A stretch of DNA of 64,000 bases, taken from the NCBI GenBank assembly GCA_000004985.1, contig GG738857.1; one strand, written 5' to 3'. A model generated the notes under the pieces. That model did not search any database. It was not told the origin of the DNA and worked only from the letters and a program-made list of their open reading frames with translations. Below are positions 9,331-46,393 of the stretch, piece after piece. Origin of the DNA: Naegleria gruberi. Taxonomy: Eukaryota. The stretch's first letter is position 1, and each line of letters opens with the position of its first letter. The position numbers and the translations under genes are program-made.

Positions 9331-9683
9331 AATGGATACAACAGTGAAAGTTGTATAGCATTTGATACAATCAATCTCCTCTTTATGCGGCAGATTTCCT
9401 CATTCCCTTAGAGATAGTACCGATGCAAGAGATTCGAATAGAAAACAGTAAGTCAAACATCCAAAATATCAATTTTAGAAACGTAAAATTTATTTGATGT
9501 CAATTGAAATCATTTGGAATATTGGAAAATTCGAGAAGAATATCATCCTACTTGGTTTGTTCTCAAAATAGATTAAATCCAAACTTTCATTTTTTCCAAA
9601 TTTGTAATTTGCTTATCACGCTTTAATATTCACTTTAAAAGTACTTTGGCAGTACTCCAAATCATTGAAAAAAACGACACAAA

Positions 9684-18957: not shown

Positions 18958-21900
18958 TTAATTTTGTTTGAGTTTTCTATTTTCCTCTTCTAATACTTTA
19001 ATTCTTTCTAATAGGTTGGTATTTTCCTCTACAAGTTGAGAGTAGCTCCTTAATGGTGAGATTTTCTTCAATTCTCCAACTTGTTTTTCAATATTGAAAG
19101 TGATATCTTTGATTTCACCTTTCAAAAATTTCAAAATATTCTTAATTGTTAACTTGTGAGAATAACAATTCAATCTTTTTGATGAATCTCTTTGAATCAT
19201 GCTAATAATGCTTCTAATCAATATGTTATTCACTCCTAAATCTGCATTAATCGTTTCATTGATTAGTTTTTCAATTGCATAATGTAATTTCATTTCTCCC
19301 TCTGTTGTTGTCACAACTGTATAGAAATATTTTCCATGTCCACTAAAATATGGATACTTGTCATTATATTTAGAGACATCTGGATCATTAACAAATCTTT
19401 CACACAATTGCAAAGGACAATTGGTTAATAATTTCAACAAAATGCATCCCAATGAAAATATATCACATGAAATGGTAATTTGTCCAACATTGTGAGCAAG
19501 TTTTTCATTGTCATCACTTTTCAATAAATCATCAGAATAATTATCATGTGAAACTTCAGGAGACATGTATGCAAACTTTCCACGAGCAATTGTAATTGAA
19601 TTACCTGTCTTGATAACTCTTGATGTTTCAAAATCAATAATTTTGTAATGATCTTGAACTTTGACAATATTTTGAGGATCTAAATCTCTGTGTAAAATAT
19701 TGTGATCATGAATTGATTGAACAGAGTTCAATACTTTGATAAATATTTCAAGAATTTCAATCAACTTTTCCTTATTAATGAATCCATTTCTATAAATTCC
19801 ATCTTGATTATTTCTTGAAATATAATTTGATAATGATTCCTCTCCAAGTTCCATCACTGAATATAAATGATTTTGAATAATTTCACAATCAAAACATTTG
19901 ATCTTTCCTTCAATGTCTGTTCTGTTCAATAAATTAATGGTTTCTTTTGTTGATTCTTCAGATTCCTCTGGATTATATTTTAATTTTAATGCCCTTAATG
20001 ATTTACTACTTTTGTGAAATACTTTGAATGCAACACCTTCACCTCCATATCCTAATACTGAAATGAAATCATAATTATATTTGAAATAATTATAGAAATA
20101 ATTGAGAGCTTTGAATACTTTTGATAAATCTCCTCTCAGCTCATTATATTTACAAATTATTTGTTTGTAATTATCAAATGTTTTCTCATTTTCAAACCAC
20201 TTGTTGGCAAAAATCATAATTTCATTAATTTCCTGTTTTGTATAAAATGACGTTTCAAAGTTTGTTGCAACTTGTTCCACAATATTCTTCAAATCTTTCA
20301 TTCTTGTTGATTGAGAAGGATTATCTTCAAGAAATTTATCCAATCTGAAACAAAATAAATAATAGTTAGCTTTGGTGCTTTGTAAATCAATTAGAGCAAT
20401 AATATCATTAGACAATTCTGAATGGTTCATTCGTTTCAATATTTGAAAAATAATCAATTTTTCAACAAATATTGGTGTGTAGATAGGATTAAAATTGAAT
20501 ATTGTACTTTTTGGTGTTGGATTAAAGAGACTTGTTAATTCAATAGCATAATATAAATCTTTTTCATCCATAAATATTTTGGAGTATTGTTCAATTATAT
20601 TGCTTGACAGCTTTTTCTGAATATTTAAGCATTCTTCAATGGTTTTGGATATAGAAGGTGAGAACTTTCTTGCATTTTCTTTGTTCAATTTAAATAGCAA
20701 ATAAATAAATTCTCTATCTTTTTTAAATGATGAATCAGCGTATTCAAGTGCTCGTACATTTTGTTTAACAGCTTCCAATACAATTTCTCTATCTTTTTTC
20801 AATAATGAATCAGCATATTTAAGTGCATATCCATCTTGTTTGACAGTTTCCAATATAAATTCTCTATCTTTTTTAAATGATGAATCAGCGTATTCAAGTG
20901 CTCGTACATTTTGTTTAACAGCTTCCAATACAATTTCTCTATCTTTTTTCAATAATGAATCAGCATATTCAAGTGTCAATCCATTTTGTTTAACAGTTTC
21001 CAATATAATTTCTCTATCTTTTTTAAATGATGAATCAGCATATTCAAGTGCCAATCCATTTTGTTTAACAGCTTCCAATATAATTTCTCTATCTTTTTTC
21101 AATAATGAATCAGCATATTCAAGTGCCAATCCATTTTGTTTGACAGCTTCCAATATAAATTCTCTATCTTTTTTAAATGATGAATCAGCATATTGAAGTG
21201 CTCGTACATTTTGTTTAACAGCTTCCAATATAATTTCTCTATCTTTTTTCAATGATGAATCAGCATATTGAAGTGCTCGTCCATTTTGTTTAACAGCTTC
21301 CAATATAAATTCTCTATCTTTTAGAAATGATGAATCAGCATATTTAAGTGCATACCCATCTTGTTTAACAGCTTCCAATATAAATTCTCTATCTTTTTTA
21401 AATGATGAATCAGCATATTTAAGTGCATATTCATTTTGTTTAACAGATTCCAATATAATTTCTCTATCTTTTTTAAATGATGAATCAGCATATTTAAGTG
21501 CCAATCCATTTTGTTTAACAGCTTCCAATATAATTTCTCTATCTTTTTTCAATATTGAATCAGCGTATTCAAGTGCCCACCCATTTTGTTTAACAGCTTC
21601 CAATATAAATTCTCTATCTTTTTTAAATGATGAATCAGCATATTGAAGTGCCAATCCATTTTGTTTAACAGCTTCCAATATAATTTCTCTATCTTTTTTA
21701 AATGATGAATCAGCATATTCAAGTGCCAATCCATGTTGTTTAACAGCTTCCAATACAATTTCTCTATCTTTTTTAAATGATGAATCAGCGTATTCAAGTG
21801 CATATCCATTTTGTTTAACAGCTTCCAATATAATTTCTCTATCTTTTTTCAATAATGAATCAGCGTATTCAAGTGCTGGTCCATAGCGTTTAACAGCTTC

Positions 21901-22533
21901 CAATACAATTTCTCTATCTTTTTTAAATGATGAATCAGCATATTGAAGTGCCCACCCATTTTGTTTAACAGCTTCCAATACAATTTCTCTATCCTTTTTA
22001 AATGATGAATCAGCATCTTCAAGTGCCGATCCATTTTGTTTAACAGCTTCCAATATAATTTCTCTATCTTTTTTAAATGATGAATCAGCAAATTCAAGTG
22101 CCAATCCATTTTGTTTAACAGCTTCCAATATAATTTCTCTATCTTTTTTAAATGATGAATCAGCGTATTGAAGTGCCAATCCATAGTGTTTAACAGCTTC
22201 CAATATAATTTCTCTATCTTTTTTCAATAATGAATCAGCGTATTCAAGTGCTGGTCCATAGCGTTTAACAGCTTCCAATACAATTTCTCTATCTTTTTTA
22301 AATGATGAATCAGCATATTGAAGTGCCCACCCATTTTGTTTAACAGCTTCCAATACAATTTCTCTATCCTTTTTAAATGATGAATCAGCATCTTCAAGTG
22401 CCGATCCATCTTGTTTAACAGCTTCCAACACATATTTCCTATCGGCCTATTGTTGTGATCATGATCATCACATTTTATATAATAATTATTTCACCACACA
22501 GCAACAAATACCAACCCACTCGTTTATGTTCAT
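18958..22533 (-). CDS. Copy B (intact) of the DUF4116-like repeat / atypical protein kinase / coiled-coil gene. Main exon 18958..22456 (~1166 aa), plus a proposed 18-nt 5' exon at 22516..22533.
   Basis: A single 3.5 kb ORF carries ~23 repeats of (E)AVKQNGxALEYADSSFKKDREIILE and a helical linker. The kinase domain has glycine loop LGYGGEGVAF, beta3 RALKLK, HRDLDPQN, DFETSR, YMSPE and DIFSLGCIL. The C-terminus LVEENTNLLERIKVLEEENRKLKQN is a coiled coil. A TAG stop sits immediately upstream in the repeat frame, and there is no in-frame ATG in 1.7 kb of repeats. A conserved ATG at 22533 is proposed to splice in across a 59-nt intron (GTTGGT...caacaatag). Confidence 0.75.
20690..22456 (-). repeat. 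Tandem 75-bp coding repeat array (~23 units, DUF4116-like), copy B.
   Basis: A perfect 75-bp periodicity, with mostly synonymous variation and a few replacement changes (N/D/H/Y, L/W/R, E/Q/K) between units. Both the repeat frame and the +1 frame of the same strand are open over long stretches. Confidence 0.85.
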
Positions 22534-24106
22534 TTTTTTTAAAGCTGTTCTCGCCCATCACATTCCGAATCAACTATCAAGATTTTTACACCAAGATTCA
22601 AAGAGATAAAACTTTGTGAAAAATGTATTCTCTTGATTTATTTTGAAATATTTATAAATTAGAACTAGTAAGTTAAGGGAAGTCATCAAAATTACACTTG
22701 GAGTAGGATGGTTTGAAAACGTCGAACATGAGGGTTGTTGAGAAAAATTAAAAAAGGAAATAATTAATAATATTAATAAATAATATAATTACAAAATAAA
22801 ATAATTAATAATACTACTAATTCAAAGTCAGGAAATTGATTGTTTGTTCAGGTAGATTTTCGATGAAACGACCGAAATTTTGGTTGTTGCTCCCAATACA
22901 GCACCTAGATGGCTGTGAGATTGGATGAAATTGTAGGTGGAGAACCTACCCTCAACTTTAACCTTTGGGAATTTGGGTAGGAACTCAGTAAGAGGAGAAC
23001 TTTCTGTAATTTCACAATGCACTCAGTTGTATTGTGTTACATGCTGTTCAACATTTACTGCTTTCATCTCGGTAAGCAGCATTCTCTGTCAATCATTAAA
23101 AACATACGATTTTCAAACATCTATTTTAGTAAGATTTCCTAATTGAAAATGCAAAACATACCAACATTAAAGCTAAATTATTGGATAAGGTGAACATTGT
23201 AATAATTCTGTTTAGCCAACAAGAACTTGGAACAATATTGGATCAACATCAGGTACATCACGACTCTGTTGATTCTTGGAGTGATTTCACATCTATTAAC
23301 TCCAAGAATTTCACCACATCATCTCATCATGATTTAAATAATAGCAATAATAGTAATTTTTGGAATTTAATCCTTCATCATGATTTGGAAATAATTTTAT
23401 TATTTGGAAAAATTCAAGTTGGTACATCATCATCGGAACAACTACCAACCATCATCATTGTTATTTATCATCATTATAATAGTAATATTTGTGGAAATAA
23501 ATCTGATAATAGTAATATTTTAGTGAAATTCAATATTTTCACTAAAATCATCATCACAGATTTATATATGATAATTTGGAAAATTTTCAATCTAGTATTG
23601 TTCAGCATGGTCAATTCCATCAGGTAAAATCACTTCCGAACATTTCCCTATTGGTTATCATGTATCTCAACATAATAAACAATATATTTATTATCAGATT
23701 TTCATAGTTTTGTGTTTTTACCAACTTCGGGGTATTCATGGTCACCAATCATGATTCATGCCAAAAGAACATAGCCAATCATCTTGAAACATTAATAAAC
23801 TTTTATTAGTACTATTGTAGATGTACTATATCAATTATTTCGTCTTGTTTCGTTGAAATCATGATTTTTCTGTTTTTAATTTCACATCACATACACCATA
23901 TTTGTTGATGTAAATTAGAAATGTAAATAATCCATTCTTGATTCTCTAATCGTGTTTTATTGTGTTTTGGTGTATTTAGGATTTTGAAATTATTCTGAAG
24001 TTATTCTTCATATAAATATGATTCTTCACTTCATGATATGAGGAGGGATTGATATCATGATTGTTTGGAAGTGTTGTACAAATTTTGGACACAACCTGAA
24101 TTGAAA

Positions 24107-24971
24107 TCAGGAAGAAAGAGTCAAATCTTTATCACCATATAAAATAAGATCAATGGTTGTTTCCTCAAACATTGTGCTTCTTTGAAGAATTGAAATATCG
24201 CCATCAATTCTTTCACGTTGATTGATGAATCTATTTCGAACTTGCCTACGACGATAGTTTTTGAGGAGTGGATTGCAAATCCTTCCAGAGAGGCATCTGA
24301 ATTGATTATTATTGACTCTGGAGCGTCGAGCTCTAACCAAGAGCCTTCGGATTATTGGATAATTTTTCGTTATACCCTCAGATCTTTGGCAGGGCCTCGA
24401 TTCACTAGTATAGTTGAATTCCATCCTTTTGAATCTTGTAAACAAGAAAGGAAGTTCACAAAGGAAACAACACACTGTATCATCTCCATCTCATCCTAAA
24501 TAAAGAGTGGACACACCACTTCCTCCCAAAAACTGTTGCGCTCATTAATCTTTGGTAAGGGATTAATTTCTGAGTGAGGTTTTTCATCAATGTTTTTTTC
24601 TTATCCATGTTTTGAAGATCCAACTATTGATAACTTTTTTTTTACATCCTTCAAAGCAGGTTCCAGGCTGTTTCACCATTAAGGTGGTTCAGCCCCCGAG
24701 CTTTAATACCCAATTGTCTAAATATTATATGAACTGTATTTTGTGCGTTTACTATCGAAACATGCCATCGTTTATCTTTCCAAGATAAACCTGTATTCGT
24801 CTTTGGGACAACGTTGATAGGATTTAAAGAATAGGTTATAATTTGGTTTTGTAACATAGAGTCTATCTCTCTCCTTATCCATGTTTTCTCTTTCTGAGAG
24901 AACTTCTGTAGCCGTAAAGATGTTTCCTCTGTCTTTCCAGGAAAGAGTATCGCTGAAAAATGTTGATTCAT
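24107..24971 (-). mobile_element. Degenerate reverse-transcriptase fragment of a retrotransposon, with multiple frame breaks.
   Basis: ORF 24651..24971(-) contains ...QNQIITYSLNPINVVPKTNTGLSWKDKRWHVSIVNAQNT, the RT domain 1-2 signature (pS.Sp...PvvlVpKkdG.wR.cvDyR.LN). ORF 24107..24475(-) contains FNYTSESRPCQ...(F.Y..PFG-like) then DLILYGDKDL (YxDD-like), in the correct N-to-C order but in different frames. Confidence 0.4.
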
Positions 24972-26279
24972 CCTTATTTGAGTTGTTTTATTACCATAAT
25001 GGCAAAGGTTACTGTATGTGAAGAATCCACCTTAATTTGTAATTTTTTGTTCTGAAGCAGCAAACCAATGACGGAAAATAATATTAGGAAAAGACATCAT
25101 GTTTACTATTTTATTTGATGAAATCAAGTGGAGAATACATAAAACAGATGTTGCTACAAGAAAACACAATGTTAATAATAAAAATATAATTAATTATTGA
25201 AATAATTCAAGGAACTGGCTTTCCATCATGCATAATCTTTACGTAATTGCTCAGCAAAGAGCTTGGAAATTGTTTCACCAATCTTTCCCTTTTCTTGATT
25301 GATATATCTCAACAATAATTCAAGGTGGAAAATCAGCAAGATTTCCAACCTTGAAATTTACCTTGTTGGAAAATTTACCATTAGTGAATTTTATTTATGG
25401 TGCAATGATGATGACCATTAAGATATTTTCCTTAATGATCGGAAGTGAACTTGTTGATGATATTGATGATAAAAGATATGATGAAGCGAAAATTCCACAA
25501 CTCGATGAATACTAAGTGGAAAAATTCCAACTCTCTTGATGGTGATATTAGACATCCCTACTAATGATACTATGTTGTTGAAATTGATGATGATTCACCA
25601 ACTTGAATTTGTCCAATATCAAAATTACTATCTAATTCCATAACGATAAACTTCCACATAAAACTACTATTATTACTATTATATTGATGATGTATAGATG
25701 ATGAGGTTCCATTCTTGGAGTGGGAAGTTGAAGAACCACTCCGAAAATAAGCTACTCATAAAATTGATATTTTTTTTTGAATGCAAGATACGTCTTGGTT
25801 GAGTTTACTATTCTTTCGATGTCTTTGAGGCTCAAAACTGTGCAATTGGCTTCAGACTCAATATTAAGGAAGTATTGCTTCCATTTTTATTTTGCTTACT
25901 GGATTTTCCAGGAAAGATTTCTCTTAATATTGATAGACGTGGTACTGATAATTTTATAACTGTTAATGGTTTTGGTCCAAAATATGTCAGTAGTGGTACT
26001 GTTATTGCACGAGATAATTCTAAAGGTTATGAAATTTTTAATGCAAATAGAATTTATGATTTATTGTAAATACAAAATGAAGAAAATCAATAAAACTATT
26101 AAATAAATATTTTGTGAAATTGTTATGGCTGATGAAACACTTCTAGTAGTAGTACTTCCATATCTATTAATTGAATTGTTTACGGGAGGAAAAAAAAAAC
26201 TACTTTCATCAAAATTAACGCCTCCAGATGTGCATCCACAGCGCTGGCTATAACAAGAAAATGGACTTGTTGTACAATA

Positions 26280-26825
26280 CTACTCTTGTTGTGTAGAATA
26301 TTTTTGGAACTTTGGTTTGATAGTAATTGTCAAAGGATAATACTCATCAGGAATAGTAGAATTGTCTACCAATCCGAATCCGGTATGCATTATCGCAAAG
26401 AACTTTGAACATCCACAAATACTCTGAACAGCATCAGCATAAGGGTACAAACTGAAAGATGTACCAGGATTAATACATTGATTGTCTGTGTATCTGTAGC
26501 GAACACGATCTGCAAAGAAAATATTTTGAATATCTGTTCTAATTGAAGAATTTCCTCTGTAATAAGGTTTGTCAAGTGAAACATCAAAAGTATAAATTTT
26601 ACATCCTACTGATGAATCCACAAATTTTTTGACTCCATCAAGTTTTAAACTAAAAGGTGTAGTGTAACTTCTATTGGGAATAATAATAGTAATTGGGTTA
26701 TCACCAGAAATCTCTATTACAGAATCTGTTGGAAGATCTTTAACATTGATCAACACATTCGCACAACTCACACATACAAACAATAGCAAGAGCAATAAAA
26801 GAGTGTTAAGAAGACTTCTAGGCAT
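26280..26825 (-). CDS. Small secreted Cys-containing protein (181 aa), hypothetical.
   Basis: ATG at 26825. The N-terminus MPRSLLNTLLLLLLLFVCVSCANV is a signal peptide. The ORF is clean. It is flanked by retroelement debris on both sides, so it could be a host gene or element-derived. Confidence 0.4.
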   Translation of the reverse strand: MPRSLLNTLLLLLLLFVCVSCANVLINVKDLPTDSVIEISGDNPITIIIPNRSYTTPFSLKLDGVKKFVDSSVGCKIYTFDVSLDKPYYRGNSSIRTDIQNIFFADRVRYRYTDNQCINPGTSFSLYPYADAVQSICGCSKFFAIMHTGFGLVDNSTIPDEYYPLTITIKPKFQKYSTQQE

Positions 26826-33254: not shown

Positions 33255-36200
33255 CTATTTACGTCTTAAAAATTGCTCAGTGTATCTATAAATCATAATG
33301 GATGCACTCACATGCACATTCAAACTTCTTAATACACCCAACTGTGGAATTTCTACACAGGTATCCATCAATGACAGTAATTCAGGTGGCATGCCTTCCT
33401 TTTCATTCCCCAAACATATACAGCATCTTTCTGGGAATTCGTAATCTGGTAACATAACAGATGTGCTGGTTTGTTCTAGGCCTACGATTGTGTATCCCTC
33501 TTGTCTCTTTTGGGAAAGATATTGAGCAAGTTCTGTTGGTGGACAAGCTTCCACTGGAATCCAATGCTCGGCGCTCACAGAGATGGATTTAAACTCTTCC
33601 ATTTCCACCACGTTCATATGAGGTAAAACTAGTTTTTCAGCACTGAAAATTTCACAAGTTCTTGCAAGACCAGCCAAGTTGGGAATCTTGTCAATGAGTG
33701 AGGCAATAACAATGATAGATTGTCTCTTTCCGTTCTTGTGTTGGAGGAGAGATCTTGGATTGAGTTCATTTTGAATTTCCATCTCTGACCAAGGAACGAA
33801 TTTGGTTTGGAAGTTGAGAGTGGTGTTATCATCATCTTCAGAATGATTGTTTTCCTCATCTTCATTGTTTGTTGGCTCTCCCATTTGAACAATTTCCATT
33901 TCCGAATTATCAGTCAAGCCAAACTTGACGCGAAACTTGTCGATAATAGATGAATCGAATACACTTGCAATTCCCTTGAAAAACATGGTACTTGGATTCT
34001 TTCGTTCCTCAGCAGATTTTGATGGAGCTAAAAAGTCACTTGCCCATTCCTTGACCATTTTATCAGCCACATGAGAAACCACAGCTGATGCGGTAAAATC
34101 ATCAATAGATCCCAATGTTGGAATAACTTGTTCACGTTTCAACAATGGTTCCATAATTGCTGTCATACTACTAACACCAAATTGAGGTGTAAATAATTTG
34201 TCAACCAAGAGTGATGTCTTTGTAATACCATGACCAGTCAAGTAGAAGAGTGAATAGATAATCAAATCAAAATTGTCCTTAATTCCTCTCATATGATCAA
34301 TATTAGGATTGTCATTGATAAGACTAGTTCCTTCATAATAATAACTGAGATATAATTGCTGGGTGCTTTTAACAGGATCTACAACAATCAAGCTCTCATA
34401 CTTGCTCAACCACTTTTGAATATTTTGAGCAGAGTGTAAGAATTGATAGACTTGTTTCAAGAGTTCATTATTCTTCAAGATTTCTTGGCCTCTCTTGTTG
34501 GACATTTCTTCCATTCTATAAAGGACATTTCTCAACATGATATGTGTAATAACTCTAACAGTGTGATGATTAGAAGTGGCGTAGACAAACAATCCATTCA
34601 ACAACAAGGTAAGCCAGGTTTCCTTTTCAATATTCGAATCACTCAACAATAAATCTTCTGATGCATAAATGAGTACATTACCAACCAGTGAGACAACGGA
34701 ACCAATGTATTGTTGTCTCTGGTTAATATCCTCCCTCAAGTGATGCAACAGAGATTTGATGCCCATAGCTGGGAATTTGAGCAAAAGAACAAGAGCAAAC
34801 AATTCTTGAATCTTTCTTACAGATGGTGGATTATCTGAAAAGACGCAAGTCCAAACTCTACCCGTTCCATCCTCATCTAAAAGCTTCAAATCTTGAAGCA
34901 TTTCAAAATCAATCTTTGGAGCAAGAATTCCAAGCAATTGCCAAATACGAAGCTTTTTGTAATGCTTTGGAGATCCAGGCATACATGATTGTTTCTTCAT
35001 GTAGAATGATGAAATGTTAATATCAATAAGACTATCTGTCAATGCATAAAGGAATGATCTATCGAGAGTGGCATCAATCGAGTCAGCCATATAAAACATG
35101 GCAACTCTCAAAATCTTGACTGCATGGAACATTGAAGTGTAGAGTAGATTTCTACTGTAATTTGGTTTCTCTTGACTGAGAGCAAGGAATGACTTGAAAC
35201 CCTTCTCAGTTTCCTCATACTCGTCATCTTCAGAAACTTCTGGACAATAAAAGATAAGAGTCATGAAATCGTTCAACAAGTGCTTTCTGGATTGATCCCC
35301 TTGATAGTCTCTCCATTGCTTGGAACCCAACAATTTGATGAATTGTAATCCTAGAATGGTTCCTACCTTTACAACAGTCTTGGAATATTCATTAATAATC
35401 TTTTCAAAGAGTTGGGAAATTCCCAATTCAGCATACAATGAAGCATCCTTACAAATTTCAAAATCTAACATTATTTCAAAGAAGGATGCAATATTAACAT
35501 GTTCATTGGTGTATCTGTGTCCGTGAGAACCTCCTTCTGATCCTGTTGAGCCTTTCAAAATTCCCCAAGTACTATTAATGATCTTCTTGAGTTGGCTAGA
35601 TGAAATAAAGTCCATTCCCAATCTGTTTTGTACTAACATGTGATGAACAACATATTTCAATGCATTAACAACAAGGATGGTTGATTCGTTGGACATTATA
35701 TCCAAACAATCAATGCAATGTTCCAAAAATTGTGTGCATTCCTCCTTGCTGGCAAGCAATTCGCTAATCTTGGCATTTTCAACCTTGAGTGGTTGATGGA
35801 AGATGAGTGCAGCTAACGACTCCAAGCTTCCCCACTTCATATCAGAAATGCAGGCAATTAAAAAGTTTGGCTTCATGAGTGTAGTATCCAATTCTTCGTT
35901 CAACAATTGTTTGTATCCATACGAGCTGGATTTGATGGCATAGTAAGAGATGGAAGGCAATACATTGAACAGTTGCATGATTTGTTCTCCACTCCTAGTA
36001 AATGTCACAGCGAGGGCCAAGAATTTACAAACACACAAAGCCCTCAAAGTAATATTATTCACAAAGAGTGTGGCAGCACCAAAGTGTTGATTTCTCAATT
36101 CTCCTTCCTCTGAATCTCTTACAACAGTGTTTACAATGCTCTCAATCAAATCTTGTGAATGTAAACTGAAATAATTCAAGACTGAATTGTGCAATAGATT

Positions 36201-39200
36201 AATAATTGGCAAAAGGGACTCTCTTTCAAAGTATGCAAAATTGTCCTTATTCTTGAAAGCCATTTGTGAAATGGAAAGAAGAGCATTGATAAGGTTTTTA
36301 AATCTCTCATAGGAAGAGTACATGAAAATGGAATTATTTCCCTCTCTGAGAATTTGATGATAGGTCGACGAAATATCGCCCAAGCTAGTGCAAACTACAG
36401 ACATAATTTCCGATTTGATGTACATGACAACTTCTTCGAGAATACTTCTAGTGCAAAGGAGATTCATCAAGTTTTCTCTGAATAGAGCCAAGAGAATATT
36501 TTCTTCCTTGCAAGGACTATCTGCAAAGAGATTTGAGTTCAACAAGGAAGAAAGCAAATTCAAAAGTCTAATCTTGATAACAGGAGACATTTGGGTATGG
36601 GTATAAAGACTACCAAGTGTTCCAGCAAACTCACAACAATCAAACTTTAACAAGTTGCCAAGTTGCTGAGACATTTGATCCTTCTTCCAATCTATAAAGT
36701 ATAAAAGTGTAGCAAATCTTTCAGTGAAGAGATGAGCTTGAGTGTCTGATGTTGATTCATCAATAATCTTTCTCAAGAGACCTTGCATAAAGGATGTGAC
36801 ATGCTCTTGACTCTTACCTAACCAAGTTCTGATTTTTCTGGTAGTATCTGGATCTGAAAGATAGGCCAATGGATCAACACATGCTGCACTGCAGAAGAAC
36901 CTTCCCAGAATTTCCATGGTTTGTTCCGAATCCTCCTTACACATCTTTTCAAAACTAAAGCAATTTAAAATGATTTCCAAAGAGGTACTGTACATTCTCA
37001 GTTTCAACCAAAGACTTTGCTCAGGCACTTGTTGTAAGATAATCTTGTCCACAAGAAGAGCCAATTCTTCAACGCTTAAAATTTCCTCCTCACTCAATTT
37101 GAGTCTCGCAAGAATGATCAAGAAGTAGGATGTTGCAATTCTGGACCATCTAGTGGAGCCAAAATTTGTCAGGAAGGTGCAAATGCTCGACTTGTATTCA
37201 TCTATGCCCAGAGATTTACAAGCATTGAAATATGCTTCAAAAAAGAGGAAAATCTTCTCTCCAATATTATCCTTCTTGGTGGTGTAGAGTTTGCAATTTG
37301 AAGCACACTCCATGAATGATCCACAAATGAATGTATTATCCAATAGTAAATTCTTTCTCAACAAGGTATTTTCAAATTGAACCATGACATAATCTTGGAT
37401 GGTCTTGTAGGCATCAAGCATTGAGTGAACAGCCAATTTTACAACACCAAGATTGGCGTGAGTCATTGCTCTAATCCACAAAATCTTGACAAATCTCTGA
37501 TCAATGAAATAATTGTAATTTCTATCAGTTCCTTGTTTTGGCATGAGGTCAAAAACTAATCCCCAAACTGGGGTAATCAAGTGAATGGAGTGATTTCCTA
37601 GTGTTTCATAAATCATGAAAAATGTTTTCCATTGGTGTTGAAGAGAATCGTGGAGCTTGATCTCTACAATTTCTTCCTTAGGTCCTTTCTTGGCTTTTTT
37701 CTTCTTGGATTCTGTTTCCTTTGTCTTTTCAATTACATCCTTCGACACGAAAGGAGAGGACAAGTAGGAGGATATTGGTTCGGAATGTGAAATGTATGGA
37801 TAATTATTGGTGGTATCGAGAATGATTCTCTTGAGCAAGAATAGAGCTCTCTTTCCTGTAAAGTTTTCAGCATGCCACACAAGACATTCAGCAATGCTTT
37901 CCCACAACCACTCACAGGTTCTCATATCGACAATGAAGGAGTTTCCTTCAATTCTGAAAAATTCATCATACCACTGGCACAATAACATGTAAGATTCTTG
38001 AAGTAATTGATCGAACAGGGATTTTCTACTGGCCTTATCAACGAGAAGTGGAATGGAATTGTCAAGCTTTCCAGATTGATTCATTATTTGAATGAGGTCC
38101 AATATTTGGGTTAAATGTTCTCGGCTAGCTGCAGTCACAAAGTGTGGCATTAAATTTAAAAAGCAACATTTTCTCAAATGTTCGGCAACCTTCAAATCAA
38201 TCCTCCACATGGAAAAGGAAGTCAATGTAATTCCAAATCTCAAAACTCCTCTCTTTTCAATCATAATGTCGAATAATTCATTTCCAAACTGTTTCACAAC
38301 CTCATTGGAAGATAATTTTTCCTCATCCAACAAGTACTTAGAAAAGAGCATGACATTTTCCAATGTCAACTCATCCACCAATGATGATGAAGATTCATCT
38401 TCCAACAAGATTCCTCTCTTTAGTGATGCCGTACAAAACTTGAGTAAATCAAAATTGCCACTTGAATGATCCCTCATGAAACGAATGATAATTTGAAGAG
38501 CAGTGGCTTGTATCTTCTTATTCAATCGAACGGCCAACATGGCAGAAGTCTTCTTTTCGTTATAAATTGTCAATTCCTCTTGTGATAAAGACAATTCTGT
38601 ATGATGATTAACTGGTGAAGATAAAGATGATGATGATGAATGATAGGAAGGGAACAAAATTGTACTGCAAACATGTTCAATAAAGAAGGCTTGATGCTTA
38701 GCAATACTTTCCTTCAATCGTTCCTCCTTCATATAACAACTAGTATCCAATTGTAATTGTTCAAAGAGAACATCCAAAGTTGCAAGGCTATAATAAATTA
38801 ATTCAATTGTTTTGTTTGATGAGGCCGAGGATGGAATTTGCCATGATAATGATGAAGAATTTGTATTGTTACTATTGTTCAATATTGTTGTTGTTATTGT
38901 TGGAGTTTCTACAGCAACAGCCAATGATACTAATTGTTCTAAAACTCCATCATATTCCTTCAGCAGTATTTGTTCTAATAATTTGTAAAGGTCTTGTCCC
39001 GAAAACTATCCACACATGTGAGAATTAATAATAAATAACAATGATGATAATGAAGATAATAATTGTTTGATAACACCAAATTAAATAATATAATATGATG
39101 ATGATGATGATGATGAAGATAATGGAAAGATAATAATTTGTTGTTGGAAAAAAGTGCTCGTGATGAATAAAACCTACCATCAACAAGTTGAGAATAAAAT

Positions 39201-39739: not shown

Positions 39740-42700
39740 ATGGATCATCGTCTTATCATGTGGATATGCTCACTAGGTTTCGTCTTACTTCTTCTGACAC
39801 AAACAGTTGCTGCAGTTGAAGTTTCGTATAACATTTCATTACTAGTAGGTGGTGGTAATCAATATGGAGATGGTTTGCCAGCTGATAAAATCAATCTCTA
39901 CAACCCAACAGCAATAGCTTTCAACTCCAGAGGAGACATGTATGTGGTCGATGCACAACTCCAAGTTATTCGAAAGATAGCAAAAGATGGAATCACCACA
40001 ACCATTGCAGGATTTCCACAAGATGCTGGTTACAATGGGGATAACATTCTAGCAAACAAAGCCAAGTTAAATTATCCTCGAGGTGTTGCGGTGAATGAAA
40101 ATGATGAGATTTTCATTTCTGATAGTGGCAATTACAGAATACGAAAGATTTCAAATAGTGGTATTATATCAACTGTGGCAGGAACTGGGGAGAATGGTTT
40201 TATGGATCATGTACTGGCTATTAACGGCAAGTTTGGAAATCCATCACATTTGCTTTATACGAATAGTACTCTCTATATCAATGACCAATCGAATAACAAG
40301 ATTAGAAAGTTGGATTTCACAACAGGCTCACTCTCAACAGTCGAAACCTATCCATTAGGAAAGAGTTCAAATGGCAAGGATTACTACTTTGCCAACTTTG
40401 CAGGTGTCATTACCAAGTTAGATTCGAATAGTGGAAATAGCACAAAAATTGGCTCAGAACTCTCACCAAATCTCTCCAGCTTTATTCAATACAGTTCTCA
40501 ATTGGACTGCTTCTTCTATTCCATCTATTCCGATTATAAGGTCTATAGACAATCTTTGACAGGAGTTGTCTCAACATTTGCTGGTTCCAATGAAAATTCT
40601 GGAAATATTGCAAATTTCAGTGGAGAGGGAAATCTTGCAGTGAATGCAACAATTGGTTCTCCAGCTGGTCTTTTGATTCGTGATGGATATTTGTATGTTG
40701 CCATGCAGACGAATAGTAGAATTGGGAGAGTGGAGCTCAGTAGTGGGATAATTACGACATTTGCAGGAGTGGATGCTAATAGTATGTTTGAAGGGGTGTT
40801 TGGAAATGCTACCTATTTATCAGATTCATCAGTTAGAAATATGGTATTCGAAACTGAAAGTTCCGTTTATTTTAGTGAATCAAACAAAATTCGAATGATT
40901 GATAAGAGAACGAGCTTGATCCGAACAATAGTCAAAACTTCTTCAGCTATCGAGTGTTTTACCTATTTCAATAATACTCTCTACTTGGTAATCAATTATG
41001 CAACCATATATAGAGTGGATTCGAATAATTCTTCTTTGCATCACTTTGCTGGTTCATTAGGAACTATTGTACAGAATCGACCTGCACTTGGAGTACAATT
41101 CATGCCAAAGGGCATATCATTCAATCAGAAAACCGGTGATTTATATGTGTCAGATTCTTTACAACATATCATTTCCAAAATTACTAAAAATGGTCAACTT
41201 TCAGTTATTGCAGGTAGTGTCAGTAATCCAGGATTTAGTGGAGATAATCAATTGGCAATTAATAGTCTACTCTATAGTCCACAAGACATTGTCGTCAATT
41301 CACAAAGCGGTGAAATCTTCTTTGTGGATGCATCGAATCAGAAGATTCGTAAAATAGATTCGAATGGAATTATTTCTACTCTAATAAGTGTTTCTTATCC
41401 TGAACATATGGAAATTAATCCATCAACAAACGAACTCTACATTGCATATGGTTGCAGAATTGTCAAATTTTCTGCTGTTAATGGAACCATGACAGGAATT
41501 CTTGCTGGAACTGGAGCAGCTTGTGCATATAATGGAGATAACATTCCAGCAATTAATGCACAGATAAAAGTTGACGGGATGACCATTAATTCCAATGGAG
41601 AAGTTTTCTTCATTTCAGAGGGTTCAAGGATTCGTAAAATTGATTCGAATGGAATTATTTCGACCATTGCAGGAACTGGAACTCTTGGTTACAATGGCGA
41701 TAATATTCCAGCAGTTACAAGTCAATTAAATAATCCTACTGGTATAGCAATTAGTCCAACAACTGGTGAAGTATTCATTTCGGATACAACTAATCTTAGA
41801 ATTAGAAAAATAGATTCGAAAGGCATAATTTCAACCATTGCTGGTACAGGAACTCTTGGTTACAATGGAGAAAATGTAGTTGCCACCAATGCTGACCTCT
41901 ATCATCCATCTGGTCTTTCATTCTTCAATGGAGAGCTCTATTTTGTTGCATATGATAGAATTCGAAAGGTTTCGACTGAGAATCTAGTTTCTACAATTGC
42001 AGGTGGAGACGGAGATGGAGGACCAGCACAATACTCAAATCTAGAACAGGTGAGATTCATGACCATGTCCAACTTGGGAGAAATGTTCATGGCTACTGGA
42101 AACAGAATACGAAAGATATCCACAACAGGTATCATTTCAACTGTGGCAGGAATGATTTATAATTTCGGATATAATGGAGATAGAAAGATTGCTACCACTG
42201 CCCACTTGTGGAATCCGATTGGAATTTCCCTTAATAGTGAAGGAGAAGTTTATATTGCAGGTATGTGATATTCGAAAGTCAAGTTTAATTTATTTTTATA
42301 ATAATTTGATTAGATTTGAGCAATCATAGAATTCGAAAGGTTTCCAAGAGTGGAATAATTTCGACAATTGCTGGATTAGGAGCTGCTGGATATATCGATA
42401 ACGTACTCGCAACAGAAAGTCAACTAAATGCACCGAAAGGAGTTGTTGTTGCCCCAAGTGGTGAGGTGTTTATTGCAGATTCGAATAATAACAAAGTTCG
42501 TAAAATATCAACGAGTGGAATAATTTCTACAATTGCAGGAGGTGGAAGCATTGGTTTAACCGCTGAAACTCAATTGGCCACTTTGACAAAACTTACAGAA
42601 CCAAGCTCTGTAAATGTAAATTCCAATGGAGAAGTGTTAATATTTGATAGGAATAGTATTAGAAAATTATTACCTTTGGCCATAACCTGTTTTGGTAAAT

Positions 42701-44037
42701 TTGATTCAGAAGCATGTTCTGGAAAAGGAAAATGCATATCCTACGACAAGTGCGCTTGTTCAATAGAATCAGGATCTTCAACCTATTATGGACCTATTTG
42801 TGAAAAGTTTGATTGTAATGGAAAACCAATGAATGAATCAGGTGTGTGCTCTGGAAGAGGAAAATGTCTTTCACCAAATTCATGCTCGTGTCTGGATGGA
42901 TTTTATGGTTCCAATTGTGAGAATAGTTTGGTAACGCCTGGAACTAGTCGACAGGTAGCAACGAGTGAAAAGACAATTGGGCAGGATAATACTTTGGTTA
43001 TTGTGTTGGCTATTATCATTCCAATTATATTCATTGCCTTGATTGTTGTCATTGTTTTGGTCATTGTTGCAGTTGTGTTTTTCAAAAGAAAGCAGACGAA
43101 AGCAGGAAAATCTGGTTATCAAACAAAGGCCAACACTGAGCTAGAAACCTTTACAATTCCAGATTTTCCCTCAGAGGGAAGTTTATTTCTTCAACCCTTA
43201 ATGAGTATTTCGAGTACTGGTAAGAAGGAAGAGCCATTCAATCCACTCTCTAGATATTCCAACTTGGAGAAGGTGGGCCAAGGAAGTTTCGGCAATGTTT
43301 TCAAGGCATTTGATGAGAAAACCAAAACCACAAAAGCTATTAAGGTAATCAAATATTCAAACATTGATGAGTTGAACAATTTCATGAGAGAGGGAGCTCA
43401 ACTAATGAACGTCAATCATCCTAATATTCTGAAAGTGAATGAGTTTTTTATTGGACAGGATCAAATGTTGTGTATTGACACTGATTTTTATGAGAAGGGA
43501 GATTTGGTGAGATTGACCAACATTGATTTTGATTGTTCTGAAAAACTATTGAAGGAAATAATTCATCAAACATGTAAGGCATTAGATTATATTCATTGTA
43601 CCATGAATGTCATTCACAGAGATATCAAACCATCAAATATTTTCATTAAGAGTTTGGAGAATGATAGCATCCACCTCATTATCGCAGATTTTGGATTGGC
43701 CAAGTCAAATATGGCCTCAGTGATGCATTCATTTGCTGGAACTCCACTTTTTATGAGTCCAGAATTGGGATTTGGTGGAAAATATTACCACAATACAGAT
43801 GTTTACTCGTTGGGAGTAACTCTGTATCAGATAATGACAAAGGATACAGTGACATCTATTAGTCAACTCTACGTTTCAAAGGATCAAGAAACTGTAACTC
43901 AAATTCTTAGAAAAAAGATGAAGGAAGCAGAGTTATATTCTGATAAGGTAATCAATATTGTTTTATCAATGCTTTCTAAGGATAGTGTAACCAGACCTCA
44001 AGCTCAGGACATTTTGAATGATCCTTACTTTAGATAA
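39740..44037 (+). CDS. Receptor-like Ser/Thr protein kinase: signal peptide, ~20 NHL repeats (beta-propellers), Cys-rich EGF-like modules, a transmembrane helix and a canonical kinase domain. join(39740..42260,42314..44037), ~1414 aa.
   Basis: ATG at 39740 with signal peptide MDHRLIMWICSLGFVLLLLTQTVAAV. Repeats run EVFI(S/A)D..N.RIRKI(D/S).(N/S)GIISTIAG.G..GY.GD...A. ORF 1 ends GEVYIAG at a GTATGT donor at 42261. The acceptor tttgattag at 42313 rejoins phase 1 (g+at=Asp) and gives EVYIADLSNHRIRKVSKSGIISTIAG, which is itself a perfect NHL unit. Further downstream are C-x-C-rich EGF-like modules (CSGKGKCISYDKCAC...CSGRGKCLSPNSCSCLDGFYGSNCE) and the TM helix LVIVLAIIIPIIFIALIVVIVLVIVAVVFF. The kinase domain carries GQGSFG, AIKVIK, HRDIKPSN, DFGLAKS, SPE and DVYSLG. 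Confidence 0.75.
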
Positions 44038-44227: not shown

Positions 44228-46393
44228 ATGAATATAAATTCTGCAACCATTCCGATCGAAGAATTATTCTCCCAATTCAAACAATATTTACTAAATTACC
44301 TGATCATGGATGAAACTGATGAGAATGATCGTGTATTAATTAATTTAACTTGTAGTAACTCTTCTCCGGGTGCTAATGATGATTGGCATACTATTTCGGG
44401 AGAATTGCAATCGATTTATTTGATCATGATGAATAAGAATCAAAGCACGAGTAATTTTGAAGATAAGAAATTAATAATAATACCACCATGGTTAGACTCT
44501 TTAAATTCCATTGCCAATGTTGAATTTGTTAAACAATTTACAATTGAAGAGAATGATGATGAAATGATTAGAAATTTCAAATTGTTGAGATTGGCTATTG
44601 ATGTCTTTAGAACAGGGATGGCTCAGAGTAGTTTGATAACTGGATTTTTCAAGCATTTCTTTTATTGTCTTGATGAATCTGTTGGAGAGTGTTTGGATTT
44701 GAAAAGACAAGTTAATACTCAACAACTTGTCAGAGTTGTGTTTAATCAATCGACCAAGATACCTGACTGGAAAGTTGGTATTCTTGTCGTATTGGCACAA
44801 ATGATACACCGTTATTTCTTGAATGAGTGGATTGGATTCTATTTGTTTCTTATTCAATATTATAATATAAGAGCTTGGGAGGAAAGATTTATTGAGATGA
44901 CTGATATGGATTACAAACTATTGAATGAATTATTCACTATTCCAATTGACAAGTTTTCGAATCTGTTTAAAGCTAATTTGGCTAAAGTGGTTTACCAACA
45001 TTTCCAATGTTATAATACTAAATTGAAAATTCTTCCAAAATTATTGCAAGAACTTGGTATGCCTGAGCATAATACGCTTATGGAGACATTTAAACACGAG
45101 CTGAACTATGATATGCAAATGATTGTAAATGAGAGCTCCAGAAATCTCAGCTCTGAATCTATCAGAAAGGAGAGAATACTAAAAATATTTTACCTTTGCA
45201 AGGTTTTTTATGGATTCAAACAATTTGGTTCAGAAATAACTGAGCAATTCAAATATTTACATTTGAGTCTTTTACAAAGCAGAGACGAAGAGATTGTACA
45301 AGAGAGTTTGGAAATGCTTCATGTAGCACCTAATATCTCGTCAGCAACAGTCGCATCAAACTCAATAGAATTGATAGTAGTATTGACAGAATTGTTTGAA
45401 CACAGGAAAGAATCTATCAGAGAGGAAGCATACAAATGGTGTTCCAAACTATTAGTTCGAACAACTTGTATGATTGATGCTCCCCTTTGTTCAAAGCAAA
45501 TTCTAAATGCTTTAATGAATGCTCCTGTCCTTACTAATAATCTTATTGAACTAGCCACATCTGCATTCAATTGCTTTAAATATTTGCATGATTACAATGA
45601 ACAATATCTAAATTTTTTCCACAAGATTGTTGAAATATTGCGTATTTCAATCAATAATGACAAAGAGAGAGTGGAAATAACACTACGAGCAATACCCCAA
45701 ATTGTTGATTTAGACACTGAAATTCGTACTGTAATTTTAAATCTTCCTCTAAATGATTTGGTCAACTTTTGCCTCACCAATGAAATTTCAATTCCAACAG
45801 AAATTATCACAATAATCATGGGAATAACTGGTTCTGGTACTGAATTGGTAAAACTTCTTTTATGCACTTCTGATACCAGTCTACACTGTGTTCTAGCTGA
45901 TTTACTGAATAAGAATTTTGTTGAGACAGGTTCTTTATTGATATCACAAGAAGAAATAGACCGTTTGATTAATCAGAAATTGTCTATTTCCCAATTCTTT
46001 AAGAATTATGAGATTAATTGTTTTATTTATAAGGTAGCTCACTTTTATTCTGATACTGTGGGGCTAGCAATACATTTGAATGCATGTCCTGCTTTCATGT
46101 TTGACCAAGTGGATGGGAAAGGAAAAGTTCCTGAAATTGTTGTTTTGAATTATTTAAACTTATTAGAAATTATTCTAGATAGAGAATTTGAAACAATATC
46201 AGACAATGTGGATATCATTATGGAAACACTTGAGGATATTTCAACTCTAGGTTATCCTTTGAAAATACGTGCAATGATTGAACGTATTCTAAAGTTGCTG
46301 CGTTTGCATGACATTGATGATTGGCGTAAAGGTTTTGACCATAATAGCATCCCTGTTTATGAAGGCAATGATGATGATTTAACGTATTGGTAA
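44228..46393 (+). CDS. Hypothetical helical protein, 721 aa, no recognised domain.
   Basis: ATG at 44228 with an in-frame TGA 18 nt upstream. A long clean ORF. The stop at 46391-46393 lies ~6 bp from the stop of the convergent P450 3' exon. Confidence 0.5.
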   Translation: MNINSATIPIEELFSQFKQYLLNYLIMDETDENDRVLINLTCSNSSPGANDDWHTISGELQSIYLIMMNKNQSTSNFEDKKLIIIPPWLDSLNSIANVEFVKQFTIEENDDEMIRNFKLLRLAIDVFRTGMAQSSLITGFFKHFFYCLDESVGECLDLKRQVNTQQLVRVVFNQSTKIPDWKVGILVVLAQMIHRYFLNEWIGFYLFLIQYYNIRAWEERFIEMTDMDYKLLNELFTIPIDKFSNLFKANLAKVVYQHFQCYNTKLKILPKLLQELGMPEHNTLMETFKHELNYDMQMIVNESSRNLSSESIRKERILKIFYLCKVFYGFKQFGSEITEQFKYLHLSLLQSRDEEIVQESLEMLHVAPNISSATVASNSIELIVVLTELFEHRKESIREEAYKWCSKLLVRTTCMIDAPLCSKQILNALMNAPVLTNNLIELATSAFNCFKYLHDYNEQYLNFFHKIVEILRISINNDKERVEITLRAIPQIVDLDTEIRTVILNLPLNDLVNFCLTNEISIPTEIITIIMGITGSGTELVKLLLCTSDTSLHCVLADLLNKNFVETGSLLISQEEIDRLINQKLSISQFFKNYEINCFIYKVAHFYSDTVGLAIHLNACPAFMFDQVDGKGKVPEIVVLNYLNLLEIILDREFETISDNVDIIMETLEDISTLGYPLKIRAMIERILKLLRLHDIDDWRKGFDHNSIPVYEGNDDDLTYW

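Follow-up and report, generated by a model that had tools for sequence, protein, structure and literature searches.

An NHL-propeller receptor kinase predicted from a two-exon gene of Naegleria gruberi

Gene structure and splice junction

Positions 39740-44037 of a 64,000-nt stretch of Naegleria gruberi contig GG738857.1 (assembly GCA_000004985.1; hereafter the window) very probably hold one two-exon nuclear gene that encodes a type-I single-pass membrane receptor kinase from an unstudied Naegleria family. The ORF listing divides this region, on the plus strand, into an 842-aa ORF (39740..42268) and a 573-aa ORF (42316..44037) with a mechanical TTG start. Sequence inspection bears out the original prediction that a 53-nt phase-1 intron rejoins the two, as both ORFs and both splice sites are present: a GTATGT donor begins at 42261 and a tttgattAG acceptor ends at 42313. 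Excision of this GT..AG interval (42261-42313) yields a CDS of 4245 nt with no internal stop that encodes the anticipated 1414 aa and reads SEGEVYIADLSNHRIRKVSKSGIISTIAG across the junction. Exon 1 (39740..42260, plus strand, 2521 nt), delimited by the ORF listing, the splice reconstruction, and the public gene model, carries codons 1-840 and the first base of codon 841. The predicted spliceosomal intron (42261..42313, plus strand) runs GTATGT...TTGATTAG, includes an in-frame TGA at 42266-42268, and has a GC content of ~19% by our own count vs ~36% in the flanking 2-kb intervals. Exon 2 (42314..44037, plus strand) extends from the final two bases of codon 841 to the stop codon at 44035-44037.

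Several lines of evidence strongly favour the join. Among 18 in-frame, stop-free GT..AG pairs near it, 42261/42313 is the top-scoring pair with an NHL-unit HMM (79.3 bits vs 72.7 bits or less), in keeping with the claim that the join restores an NHL unit, although the test is partly circular because the HMM was built from the same protein with the spliced unit included. Unspliced read-through meets the TGA two codons past the donor. Homologs from N. fowleri and from environmental sequences are collinear and ungapped across residue 841, and a related environmental contig encodes the junction stretch in a single uninterrupted frame. In an AlphaFold2 model, the junction residue sits in a β-strand within a block of pLDDT 97, with values of 92-98 around the junction. 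From sequence logic, homology, and the public model, we infer that 42261-42313 is spliced in vivo. Donor motif enrichment was considered as evidence for the join and dropped: GTATGT occurs 19 times in the window vs 26 expected, so there is no enrichment and the hexamer alone is not significant. The 32-nt spliced junction has no match in JGI metagenome contigs, which served as a proxy for cDNA; this negative carries no weight either way.

The 1414-aa reconstruction is not new. The spliced product is 100% identical over all 1414 aa to XP_002679520.1 (D2V8Z5, EFC46776.1), the product of the public N. gruberi locus NAEGRDRAFT_65336, which is labelled "predicted protein". The analysis thus re-derives an existing GenBank/RefSeq model, which may itself be a prediction, and the gene brings no gain in annotation because the public model already has the same structure. 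No paper was found under the gene name or accessions in the searchable literature.

Signal peptide, NHL propellers, and EGF modules

A signal peptide is predicted at 39740..39814 (plus strand, residues 1-25) by a hydrophobicity scan and by application of the -3/-1 rule by eye; it comprises MDHR, LIMWICSLGFVLLLLT, and QTVAA and is followed by VEV. Downstream, the ectodomain matches Pfam TEN_NHL (PF25021) at 244.5 bits (cutoff 27.1; 2e-72) and NHL (PF01436) at 131.6 bits (cutoff 20; 3e-39), which confirms the NHL-repeat ectodomain that had been read from the sequence. The earlier count of ~20 repeats is too high, and the number lies nearer 17-18 (15 clear and 2-3 degenerate): a self-built repeat HMM finds 15 NHL units and two gaps sized for ~3 further units, while the AlphaFold2 model of the ectodomain (mean pLDDT 73.8, pTM 0.40) contains 17 four-stranded blades and one disordered stretch, compatible with a 3x6 arrangement.

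Roughly 18 blades are most simply read as three tandem six-bladed β-propellers, so the original "three or more" propellers narrow to three while their six-bladed form is kept. This partition is the simplest reading rather than a demonstrated one because the pTM is 0.40 and parts of the model are of low confidence, namely model residues 180-222, which are disordered, model residues 318-430, and the EGF region. The candidate propeller 1 (39854..40768, plus strand, residues 39-343) has four clear blades, the last of them set off from the other three by two to three degenerate ones, as judged from the repeat HMM, AlphaFold2 strands, and Pfam TEN_NHL/NHL. By the repeat HMM and AlphaFold2, propeller 2 (40808..41674, plus strand, residues 357-645) would begin with degenerate blades of low confidence, and propeller 3 (41678..42702, plus strand, residues 647-970) would have six clear blades and span the intron, with junction codon 841 in the fourth of them.

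Two six-cysteine EGF-like modules (42688..42918, plus strand, residues 966-1003 and 1008-1042) follow the propellers as a probable stalk, and the earlier description of Cys-rich EGF-like modules held. Both are apparent from cysteine positions, and Pfam EGF_2 matches residues 1016-1042 at 26.3 bits vs a cutoff of 22.1 (9e-6); the 1414-aa protein also has a weak EGF_Teneurin match. N-x-S/T sequons number 12 in the ectodomain vs one in the cytoplasmic part.

Transmembrane segment and kinase domain

A single TM helix, as originally proposed, is predicted by hydrophobicity scan at 42991..43083 (plus strand, residues 1067-1097, 31 residues) and is followed by the basic stop-transfer sequence KRKQTKAGK. 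The N-terminal hydrophobic segment, the TM helix, the KRKQTK stretch, and the sequon bias together suggest secretion and a type-I topology. In an alignment of 17 family C-termini, the TM pattern A-x-x-V-P-I is kept across the family. The juxtamembrane segment spans 57 residues and has two motifs conserved in the family, DFPS[DE]xS and PxSRY, the first of which reads DFPSEGS here (43162..43182, plus strand, residues 1124-1130; same alignment).

The Ser/Thr kinase domain (43255..44031, plus strand, residues 1155-1413) matches Pfam Pkinase over its full length (1-263/263) at 1.1e-53. Every catalytic motif is present, in accordance with the canonical kinase of the original prediction: GQGSFG (1162-1167), AIK with K1184, E1200, HRDIKPSN (1275-1282), DFG (1299-1301), SPE (1322-1324), and, for the subdomain IX Asp, DVYSLG (1336). 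These intact motifs indicate a catalytically complete, RD-type Ser/Thr kinase that is probably active.

The top PDB sequence matches of the kinase are active STE20, NEK, CAMK, and ULK kinases at ~1e-25. ULK3, CDPKs, NEK1/7, MST3, SLK, HPK1, STK10, STK25, and RSK2 are among the 60 best PDB matches listed; no plant RLK, IRAK, or TGF-β receptor kinase is. The kinase thus appears to resemble STE20, NEK, CAMK, and ULK rather than RLK/Pelle-IRAK kinases, by a weak test that draws on PDB matches only. An exhaustive search ranks Naegleria and Willaertia kinases nearest, with a PAK3-like protein of a bird next. A bacterial origin of the kinase was considered, since below the Naegleria matches a word-indexed search gave chiefly Ser/Thr kinases of bacteria, and rejected on the exhaustive search and on the eukaryotic identity of the best PDB matches. 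We ascribe the bacterial-heavy result to bias in the database and the word index and do not take it as a sign of transfer.

A Naegleria receptor kinase family

The closest kinase relatives of D2V8Z5 in an exhaustive HMMER search are in Naegleria. The NHL(+EGF)-TM-kinase layout is common to at least nine N. gruberi paralogs and to homologs in N. fowleri and N. lovaniensis, so that the family has members in each of the three Naegleria species sampled. Members include D2VCE7, D2VUG2, D2VNU7, D2VK55, D2VPM5, D2VGC0, D2VI53, and D2VLP5, together with XP_044560565.1 and XP_044565022.1 from N. fowleri. An N-terminal NHL/TEN_NHL region and a C-terminal Pkinase domain occur in 11/11 of the first relatives tested and EGF matches in 8/11; two more N. 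gruberi members were found subsequently. Pfam identifies EGF_TEN and EGF_Teneurin matches in paralogs.

Kinase identity to D2V8Z5 is 49-60% in nine members and falls to 35% in the remotest of the tested paralogs, while ectodomain identity to D2V8Z5 is only 23-41%. Across the Naegleria family, the kinase module is conserved and the propeller ectodomain is fast-diverging. D2V8Z5 belongs to this family of NHL-EGF receptor kinases by its layout, its juxtamembrane motifs, and a kinase identity of at least ~49% in the core group. Neither N. fowleri nor N. lovaniensis has a member that stands out as a 1:1 ortholog by kinase or ectodomain identity, and a second NHL kinase, as expected of a tandem array, was not found in the window. 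Giant EGF-repeat proteins also occur in N. gruberi, for example P0246 with 4968 aa.

The architecture had been described as uncommon, a judgment that holds for eukaryotes insofar as no eukaryotic NHL-ectodomain receptor kinase layout was found in the searchable literature, where queries that paired Naegleria with NHL, kinome, or receptor kinase returned nothing on the D2V8Z5 family. It does not hold more generally, given that PknD is established in bacteria and that the layout forms a multigene family in Naegleria.

Comparison with known systems

Mycobacterium tuberculosis PknD, one of the NHL-bearing Hanks-type kinases of bacteria, is a membrane Ser/Thr kinase with an NHL β-propeller sensor (PMC3322341; PMC1262709). 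Like D2V8Z5, it is a single-pass Ser/Thr kinase with an extracellular NHL propeller, and the D2V8Z5 ectodomain matches the PknD sensor (1RWI) at 1.3e-8. Neither protein has a well-defined ligand, and the two share a presumed logic in which an outer propeller controls an inner kinase. The domain order is inverted: PknD has an N-terminal kinase, a TM helix, and a C-terminal single six-bladed propeller (PMC1262709), whereas D2V8Z5 would run from signal peptide through ~18 blades, two EGF modules, and TM helix to a C-terminal kinase. The D2V8Z5 kinase is nearest to eukaryotic STE20/NEK/CAMK/ULK kinases and to the Naegleria/Willaertia clade, not to PknD. By analogy, D2V8Z5 would work like PknD, but it is not a member of the PknD family.

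Teneurin-type NHL repeats, evident from the TEN_NHL match, are shared with teneurins and with the bacterial teneurin-like protein (TLP; PDB 9IFO, 9PT5; PMC13018210). Bacterial TLP is the best PDB sequence match of the ectodomain at 5.4e-60, vs 1e-15 to 1e-10 for metazoan teneurins, and it also ranks among the best Foldseek matches of the ectodomain model. As in teneurins, teneurin-type EGF modules stand beside NHL repeats in D2V8Z5 paralogs. Teneurins are type II, whereas D2V8Z5 is predicted to be type I with a kinase in place of the teneurin intracellular domain, and no YD-shell/Rhs or toxin family is among the 15 Pfam matches listed for D2V8Z5 at E up to 0.1.

The ectodomain model has its highest-ranking Foldseek matches in LRP4, LRP2, and LRP6 (7e-28 to 1e-19), likewise type-I membrane proteins in which strings of six-bladed propellers are combined with EGF modules. 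With 11-13% identity, the likeness is confined to structure and architecture; LRP blades are YWTD whereas those of D2V8Z5 are NHL, LRPs have no kinase, and no LDL-receptor repeat family is among the Pfam matches listed for D2V8Z5. The Bacteroides hybrid two-component sensor BT4663 (Foldseek 8e-21) also links an extracellular multi-propeller sensor, across the membrane, to a kinase in the cytoplasm, although it is bacterial, its periplasmic double β-propeller is of another family, and its output is a histidine kinase and response regulator rather than a Ser/Thr kinase. Plant RLK/Pelle kinases, animal TGF-β receptors, and Entamoeba TMKs share the type-I layout of ectodomain, one TM helix, and C-terminal kinase; we know of no NHL ectodomain in any of the three groups.

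Proposed function and alternative interpretations

D2V8Z5 is most likely a type-I receptor Ser/Thr kinase that works through ligand-driven clustering, with kinase activity and clustering both presumed. The propellers would bind an extracellular ligand or surface, and binding would cluster or re-orient receptor molecules. The cytoplasmic kinases could then trans-autophosphorylate on the activation loop or on juxtamembrane Ser residues, and the phosphorylated kinases would signal onward.

The mechanical ORF call and the lack of GTATGT enrichment would also fit two head-to-tail genes with no splicing, a secreted 842-aa NHL protein that ends at the TGA (42266-42268) and a separate downstream membrane kinase. 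This arrangement is extremely unlikely: ORF2 has no ATG close to its 5' end and can start only at TTG, its first ATG lies far downstream within the EGF region, and it would open in the middle of an NHL blade without a signal peptide. The join, by contrast, gives a full-scoring NHL unit, N. fowleri and environmental homologs are continuous at the junction, NHL and kinase lie on a single polypeptide in all family members tested, and the public model is spliced. Somewhat less remote, yet still improbable, is a role for the intron as a switch, in which retention would yield a soluble 842-aa NHL fragment, secreted next to the full receptor and serving as a decoy or binding protein. The in-frame TGA directly after the donor would suit such a switch, and the short product would retain the signal peptide and two complete propellers; however, chance alone should put in-frame stops into short AT-rich introns, and other candidate introns in the window have them. 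The retention product would stop two and a half blades short of the end of the array and would have neither EGF modules nor TM helix nor kinase; with propeller 3 cut mid-blade, it would probably be unstable.

Other alternatives accept the single receptor and concern what its propellers do. An enzymatic ectodomain, with lactonase, arylesterase, or strictosidine-synthase-like six-bladed propellers in place of a binding module, is suggested by weak Pfam matches to SGL (33.9 bits, cutoff 26.3), Arylesterase, and Str_synth and by the many bacterial homologs auto-named "sugar lactone lactonase YvrE". Lactonase-type families resemble NHL at the repeat level, however, the YvrE names are automatic labels, and these matches fall far below those to TEN_NHL (244 bits) and NHL (132 bits). 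Enzymatic propellers were rejected as the leading reading on this marginal standing of SGL and Arylesterase, and we regard them as highly improbable. A receptor devoted mainly to adhesion or phagocytic contact, whose propellers would bind a surface such as prey bacteria, substrate, or other amoebae, rather than a diffusible ligand, while the kinase reports contact, is a considerably stronger contender, if on balance still unlikely. Teneurin-type NHL domains are the nearest to the array (Pfam TEN_NHL; 5e-60 to the bacterial teneurin-like protein), paralogs carry teneurin-type EGF modules, family ectodomains diverge fast, and N. gruberi has giant EGF-repeat proteins such as P0246. The PknD sensor on its own mediates adhesion to endothelia and laminin (PMC3322341), which offers a precedent by analogy. 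Against its separate standing, an adhesion receptor differs from the ligand-clustered receptor kinase in the nature of the ligand only, a point that sequence cannot decide.

Evolutionary implications

The assembly of receptor kinases probably took place several separate times among eukaryotes. The lack of any RLK, IRAK, or TGF-β receptor kinase among the 60 best PDB matches listed, and of any NHL ectodomain known to us in those receptor groups, points to one such independent assembly in Heterolobosea. Naegleria, and possibly vahlkampfiid Heterolobosea more widely, may have arrived on their own at a family of type-I receptor Ser/Thr kinases, in which a lineage-specific clade of STE-like kinases was fused to NHL/EGF ectodomains of the teneurin type, whose nearest relatives found are bacterial. 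The fast-diverging triple-propeller ectodomains would then act at the surface as a repertoire of sensors that respond to prey, kin, or cues from the environment. This scenario is plausible but tentative. If it is true, Discoba would have their own equivalent of plant RLKs, animal receptor kinases, and Entamoeba TMKs, and a Discoba NHL-propeller sensor kinase would add a well-separated data point on receptor-kinase assembly. The echo of PknD and the teneurin-type modules also bear on the movement of extracellular modules between bacteria and eukaryotes.

The homologs in N. fowleri, the brain-eating amoeba, are predicted to be surface-exposed and kinase-coupled, and they may be worth considering as sensors or adhesins, or as targets for drugs and antibodies. 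On the related environmental contig L001, the neighbouring genes differ from those at the N. gruberi locus.

Gene structure and splice junction

The predicted receptor-kinase gene NAEGRDRAFT_65336 occupies 39740-44037 on the plus strand, within an AT-rich window (about 32% GC) in which long ORFs are densely packed on both strands. Its coding sequence is divided between an 842-aa ORF with an ATG start (39740-42268) and a 573-aa ORF with only a mechanical TTG start (42316-44037). The original prediction joined the two by a candidate 53-nt phase-1 intron, which begins with GTATGT at 42261 and ends with ...TTGATTAG at 42313, and its coordinates, phase and junction peptide are all correct. Intron removal leaves a first exon of 2521 nt ending in phase 1 and a spliced CDS of 4245 nt, open throughout, for a product of 1414 aa; the D841 codon is split G|AT at the junction, within ...SEGEVYIADLSNHRIRKVSKSGIISTIAG.... 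The spliced product matches EFC46776.1 (XP_002679520.1, UniProt D2V8Z5), a public N. gruberi entry labelled "predicted protein" under the same locus name, at 100% identity over 100% of its length, and the join therefore re-derives an existing gene model.

The donor hexamer by itself is uninformative, since the window contains 19 copies of GTATGT where 26 would be expected. All 18 in-frame, stop-free GT..AG pairs near the junction were enumerated, and their junction peptides were scored with an NHL-unit HMM made from 11 clear repeats of the same protein. The 42261/42313 pair scores highest (79.3 bits; runners-up 72.7 and 72.3), in a comparison that is partly circular because the spliced unit is itself one of the 11 repeats. 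Two homologs, P0121 from N. fowleri and P0126 of environmental origin, run through residue 841 without a gap, and the stretch homologous to residues 818-1414 on an environmental contig (L001; ENA ERZ2098899, NODE_78) is a single uninterrupted frame. AlphaFold2 places the junction residue (816 in model numbering) within strand 812-816, and the block around it has a mean pLDDT of 97. Two genes read without splicing would match the two ORFs as they stand, and this is unlikely: the unspliced frame ends at a TGA two codons beyond the donor, the second ORF has no ATG nearby, and its start would fall in the middle of a blade. Sequence comparison thus leaves the 42261-42313 join well supported. The spliced-junction 32-mer has no match in the metagenome contigs searched, a result that is uninformative either way.

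Similar short candidate introns of the form GTAAGT or GTATGT...TAG are found at 8422-8555 (+), 57452-57408 (-) and 47921-47879 (-). Each is 43-134 nt long, contains an in-frame stop, and links open frames that run for 100 codons or more on either side, so an intron of the 42261-42313 type fits its local context.

Domain architecture and predicted fold

Profile searches bear out the NHL, EGF and kinase domains of the original prediction. Pfam matches in the 1414-aa product comprise TEN_NHL (2.1e-72, nine stretches), NHL (2.9e-39), EGF_2 (9.4e-6, residues 1016-1042, exceeding the curated cutoff) and Pkinase (1.1e-53, residues 1155-1413, the whole profile covered). An N-terminal hydrophobic segment at residues 5-25 terminates in QTVAA|VEV, and the sole other strongly hydrophobic stretch, at 1067-1097, is followed by KRKQTKAGK. 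These segments, together with 12 N-x-S/T sequons in the ectodomain versus one in the cytoplasmic part, support a type-I topology with a predicted signal peptide.

A repeat HMM derived from the same protein identifies 15 NHL units within residues 39-970, and the gaps at 203-291 and 398-439 have room for about three degenerate blades. The earlier count of about 20 repeats is slightly high, and of the three or more propellers proposed with it, three is the favoured number. AlphaFold2 modeling of residues 26-1066 from an alignment of 32 sequences (mean pLDDT 73.8, pTM 0.40) yields 17 four-stranded blades, with disorder across model residues 180-222. In the simplest partition, the array would form three propellers of six blades each, spanning about residues 39-343, 357-645 and 647-970; conservation is highest in the third, which also holds the intron position. 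Twelve cysteines in residues 966-1042 make up two six-cysteine EGF-like modules, a region of low confidence in the model.

The kinase domain is canonical, as predicted, with every catalytic motif present: GQGSFG (1162-1167), K1184, E1200, HRDIKPSN (1275-1282), DFG (1299-1301) and SPE (1322-1324). These motifs mark it as an RD-type Ser/Thr kinase. Its nearest PDB matches by sequence are ULK3, CDPKs, NEK1/7 and the STE20-type kinases MST3, SLK and HPK1 (about 1e-25 to 1e-21); plant RLK, IRAK and TGF-beta receptor kinases are absent from the best 60 PDB matches listed. Many bacterial kinases rank after the Naegleria matches in a word-indexed search; a specifically bacterial affinity is not backed by the exhaustive HMMER search.

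By sequence, the ectodomain is closest in the PDB to a bacterial teneurin-like protein (9IFO, 5.4e-60; 9PT5, 4.1e-57) (PMC13018210), followed by SOQ1, NHLRC2, metazoan teneurins, TRIM71 and the designed "Pizza" propellers; the PknD sensor 1RWI matches at 1.3e-8. The best full-length matches beyond Naegleria are large bacterial NHL proteins (26-42% identity). By fold, the best matches are the multi-propeller receptor ectodomains of LRP4, LRP2 and LRP6 and the bacterial teneurin-like protein, and they also include the double-propeller sensor of the Bacteroides hybrid two-component system BT4663.

A Naegleria family of predicted NHL receptor kinases

An exhaustive HMMER search of 1.84 billion representative proteins, with the EGF-TM-kinase region (residues 960-1414) as query, gives two classes of match: giant EGF-repeat proteins, and proteins that match through the C-terminal TM helix and kinase. 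All 11 of the latter scanned first carry NHL or TEN_NHL at the N-terminus and Pkinase at the C-terminus, and eight of them have EGF_TEN, EGF_Teneurin or EGF_2. These 11 are D2VCE7, D2VUG2, D2VNU7, D2VK55, D2VPM5 and D2VGC0 in N. gruberi, XP_044542747, XP_044550582, XP_044543693 and XP_044543675 in N. lovaniensis, and XP_044565022 in N. fowleri, a species that also has the homolog XP_044560565. Among the farther matches, N. gruberi D2VI53 and D2VLP5 have an identical layout, and Willaertia magna has a related kinase in TM-only, TPR or ankyrin contexts. N. gruberi thus harbors at least nine NHL-receptor-kinase genes, and the NHL version is so far observed only in Naegleria and unassigned environmental contigs.

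An alignment of 17 C-termini reveals a conserved TM pattern (A-x-x-V-P-I), a conserved juxtamembrane DFPS[DE]xS, and PxSRY directly ahead of the kinase. Kinase identity to the 1414-aa protein is 49-60% in nine members (35% in D2VI53), whereas ectodomain identity is just 23-41%; this difference fits a conserved signaling module carrying a diversifying sensor.

The models of D2VPM5 (P0248, 2807 aa) and P0261 (2271 aa) part from the family alignment directly past AGTP[IL]FM, within the kinase activation segment, and terminate shortly after; the Pkinase match extends no further than profile position 164. This suggests a missed intron or a truncated public model. In D2VGC0 (P0397/P0253, 2167 aa), HRD is replaced by HGN, the Gly-rich loop carries a deletion (IGS---GRTF) and the AGTP segment is missing; this member is probably a receptor pseudokinase. 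In the giant proteins (2000-7000 aa), the receptor's teneurin-type EGF module recurs in tandem up to about 40 times and appears to be heavily expanded; the only one whose source was looked up, P0246 (D2VPE3, 4968 aa), is from N. gruberi. L001, assembled at about 1.4x coverage, carries its homologous NHL-EGF-kinase gene at 7358-11818, with the NHL part divided among frames 2, 1 and 2 by introns or assembly frameshifts and with neighbors unlike those in the window.

Proposed function and relation to known systems

A type-I receptor Ser/Thr kinase is the best-supported reading of this protein; what the analysis shows directly is its domains, its intact motifs and their conservation in the family. 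By analogy with receptor kinases generally and with PknD, the protein would be secreted into a type-I topology and catalytically active. The propeller array would bind an extracellular ligand or surface, with the EGF pair serving as a stalk, and receptor clustering would then bring RD kinases together for trans-autophosphorylation of the activation loop (DFGLAKSNMASVMHSFAGTPLFMSPE) and perhaps of the conserved juxtamembrane serines as well. A role in contact or adhesion has to be taken seriously as an alternative, given the teneurin-type NHL and EGF modules and the fact that adhesion is mediated by the PknD sensor itself (PMC3322341). An enzymatic role for the propellers is unlikely.

Bacteria provide an established case of a Ser/Thr receptor kinase with an NHL beta-propeller sensor. 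In Mycobacterium tuberculosis PknD, the kinase is N-terminal, followed by a TM helix and then by NHL repeats that build a single six-bladed propeller at the C-terminus (PMC1262709; PMC3322341). The Naegleria protein reverses this order and combines a predicted three propellers and EGF modules with a eukaryote-type kinase; it may work like PknD without belonging to the PknD family. Nor is it a teneurin, since no YD-shell or toxin-type family is among its listed Pfam matches and its orientation is type I, or a member of the LDLR family, since its blades are NHL rather than YWTD.

The original prediction regarded the architecture as one not often described. A literature search, with the 2010 genome paper outside its scope, found no paper naming the gene or describing NHL receptor kinases in Naegleria, and a Naegleria pangenome paper that counts 265 kinases and 11 "SOQ1" genes lists no receptor of this type (PMC9928731). 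The gene model is already public, and the architecture is a Naegleria family trait with a bacterial functional precedent. With the observation confirmed at the sequence level and its interpretation supported, what appears to be new is a eukaryotic, type-I, putatively triple-propeller version of the NHL-sensor receptor kinase. The value of the locus lies in an uncharacterized family that includes N. fowleri members, rather than in the intron reconstruction.

Neighboring features of the window

Upstream of the receptor-kinase gene, a 1889-aa protein (33258-38924, -) has a C-terminal SpoU-type methyltransferase domain and a weak TARBP1-domain match (23.3 bits, under the curated cutoff of 27), and is probably a tRNA 2'-O-methyltransferase. 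The downstream neighbor (44228-46390, +; 721 aa) has no match in Pfam. About 3.8 kb at 22431-26280 lack an ORF of at least 150 aa, with minus-strand GTATGT at 23102, 23156 and 23889, and may represent a multi-intron gene or non-coding sequence. A further unusual repeat-plus-kinase architecture is encoded at 18961-22431 (-), where a 1157-aa ORF combines 17 DUF4116 repeats (1052 bits) with a following kinase domain (Pkinase, 3.9e-24).
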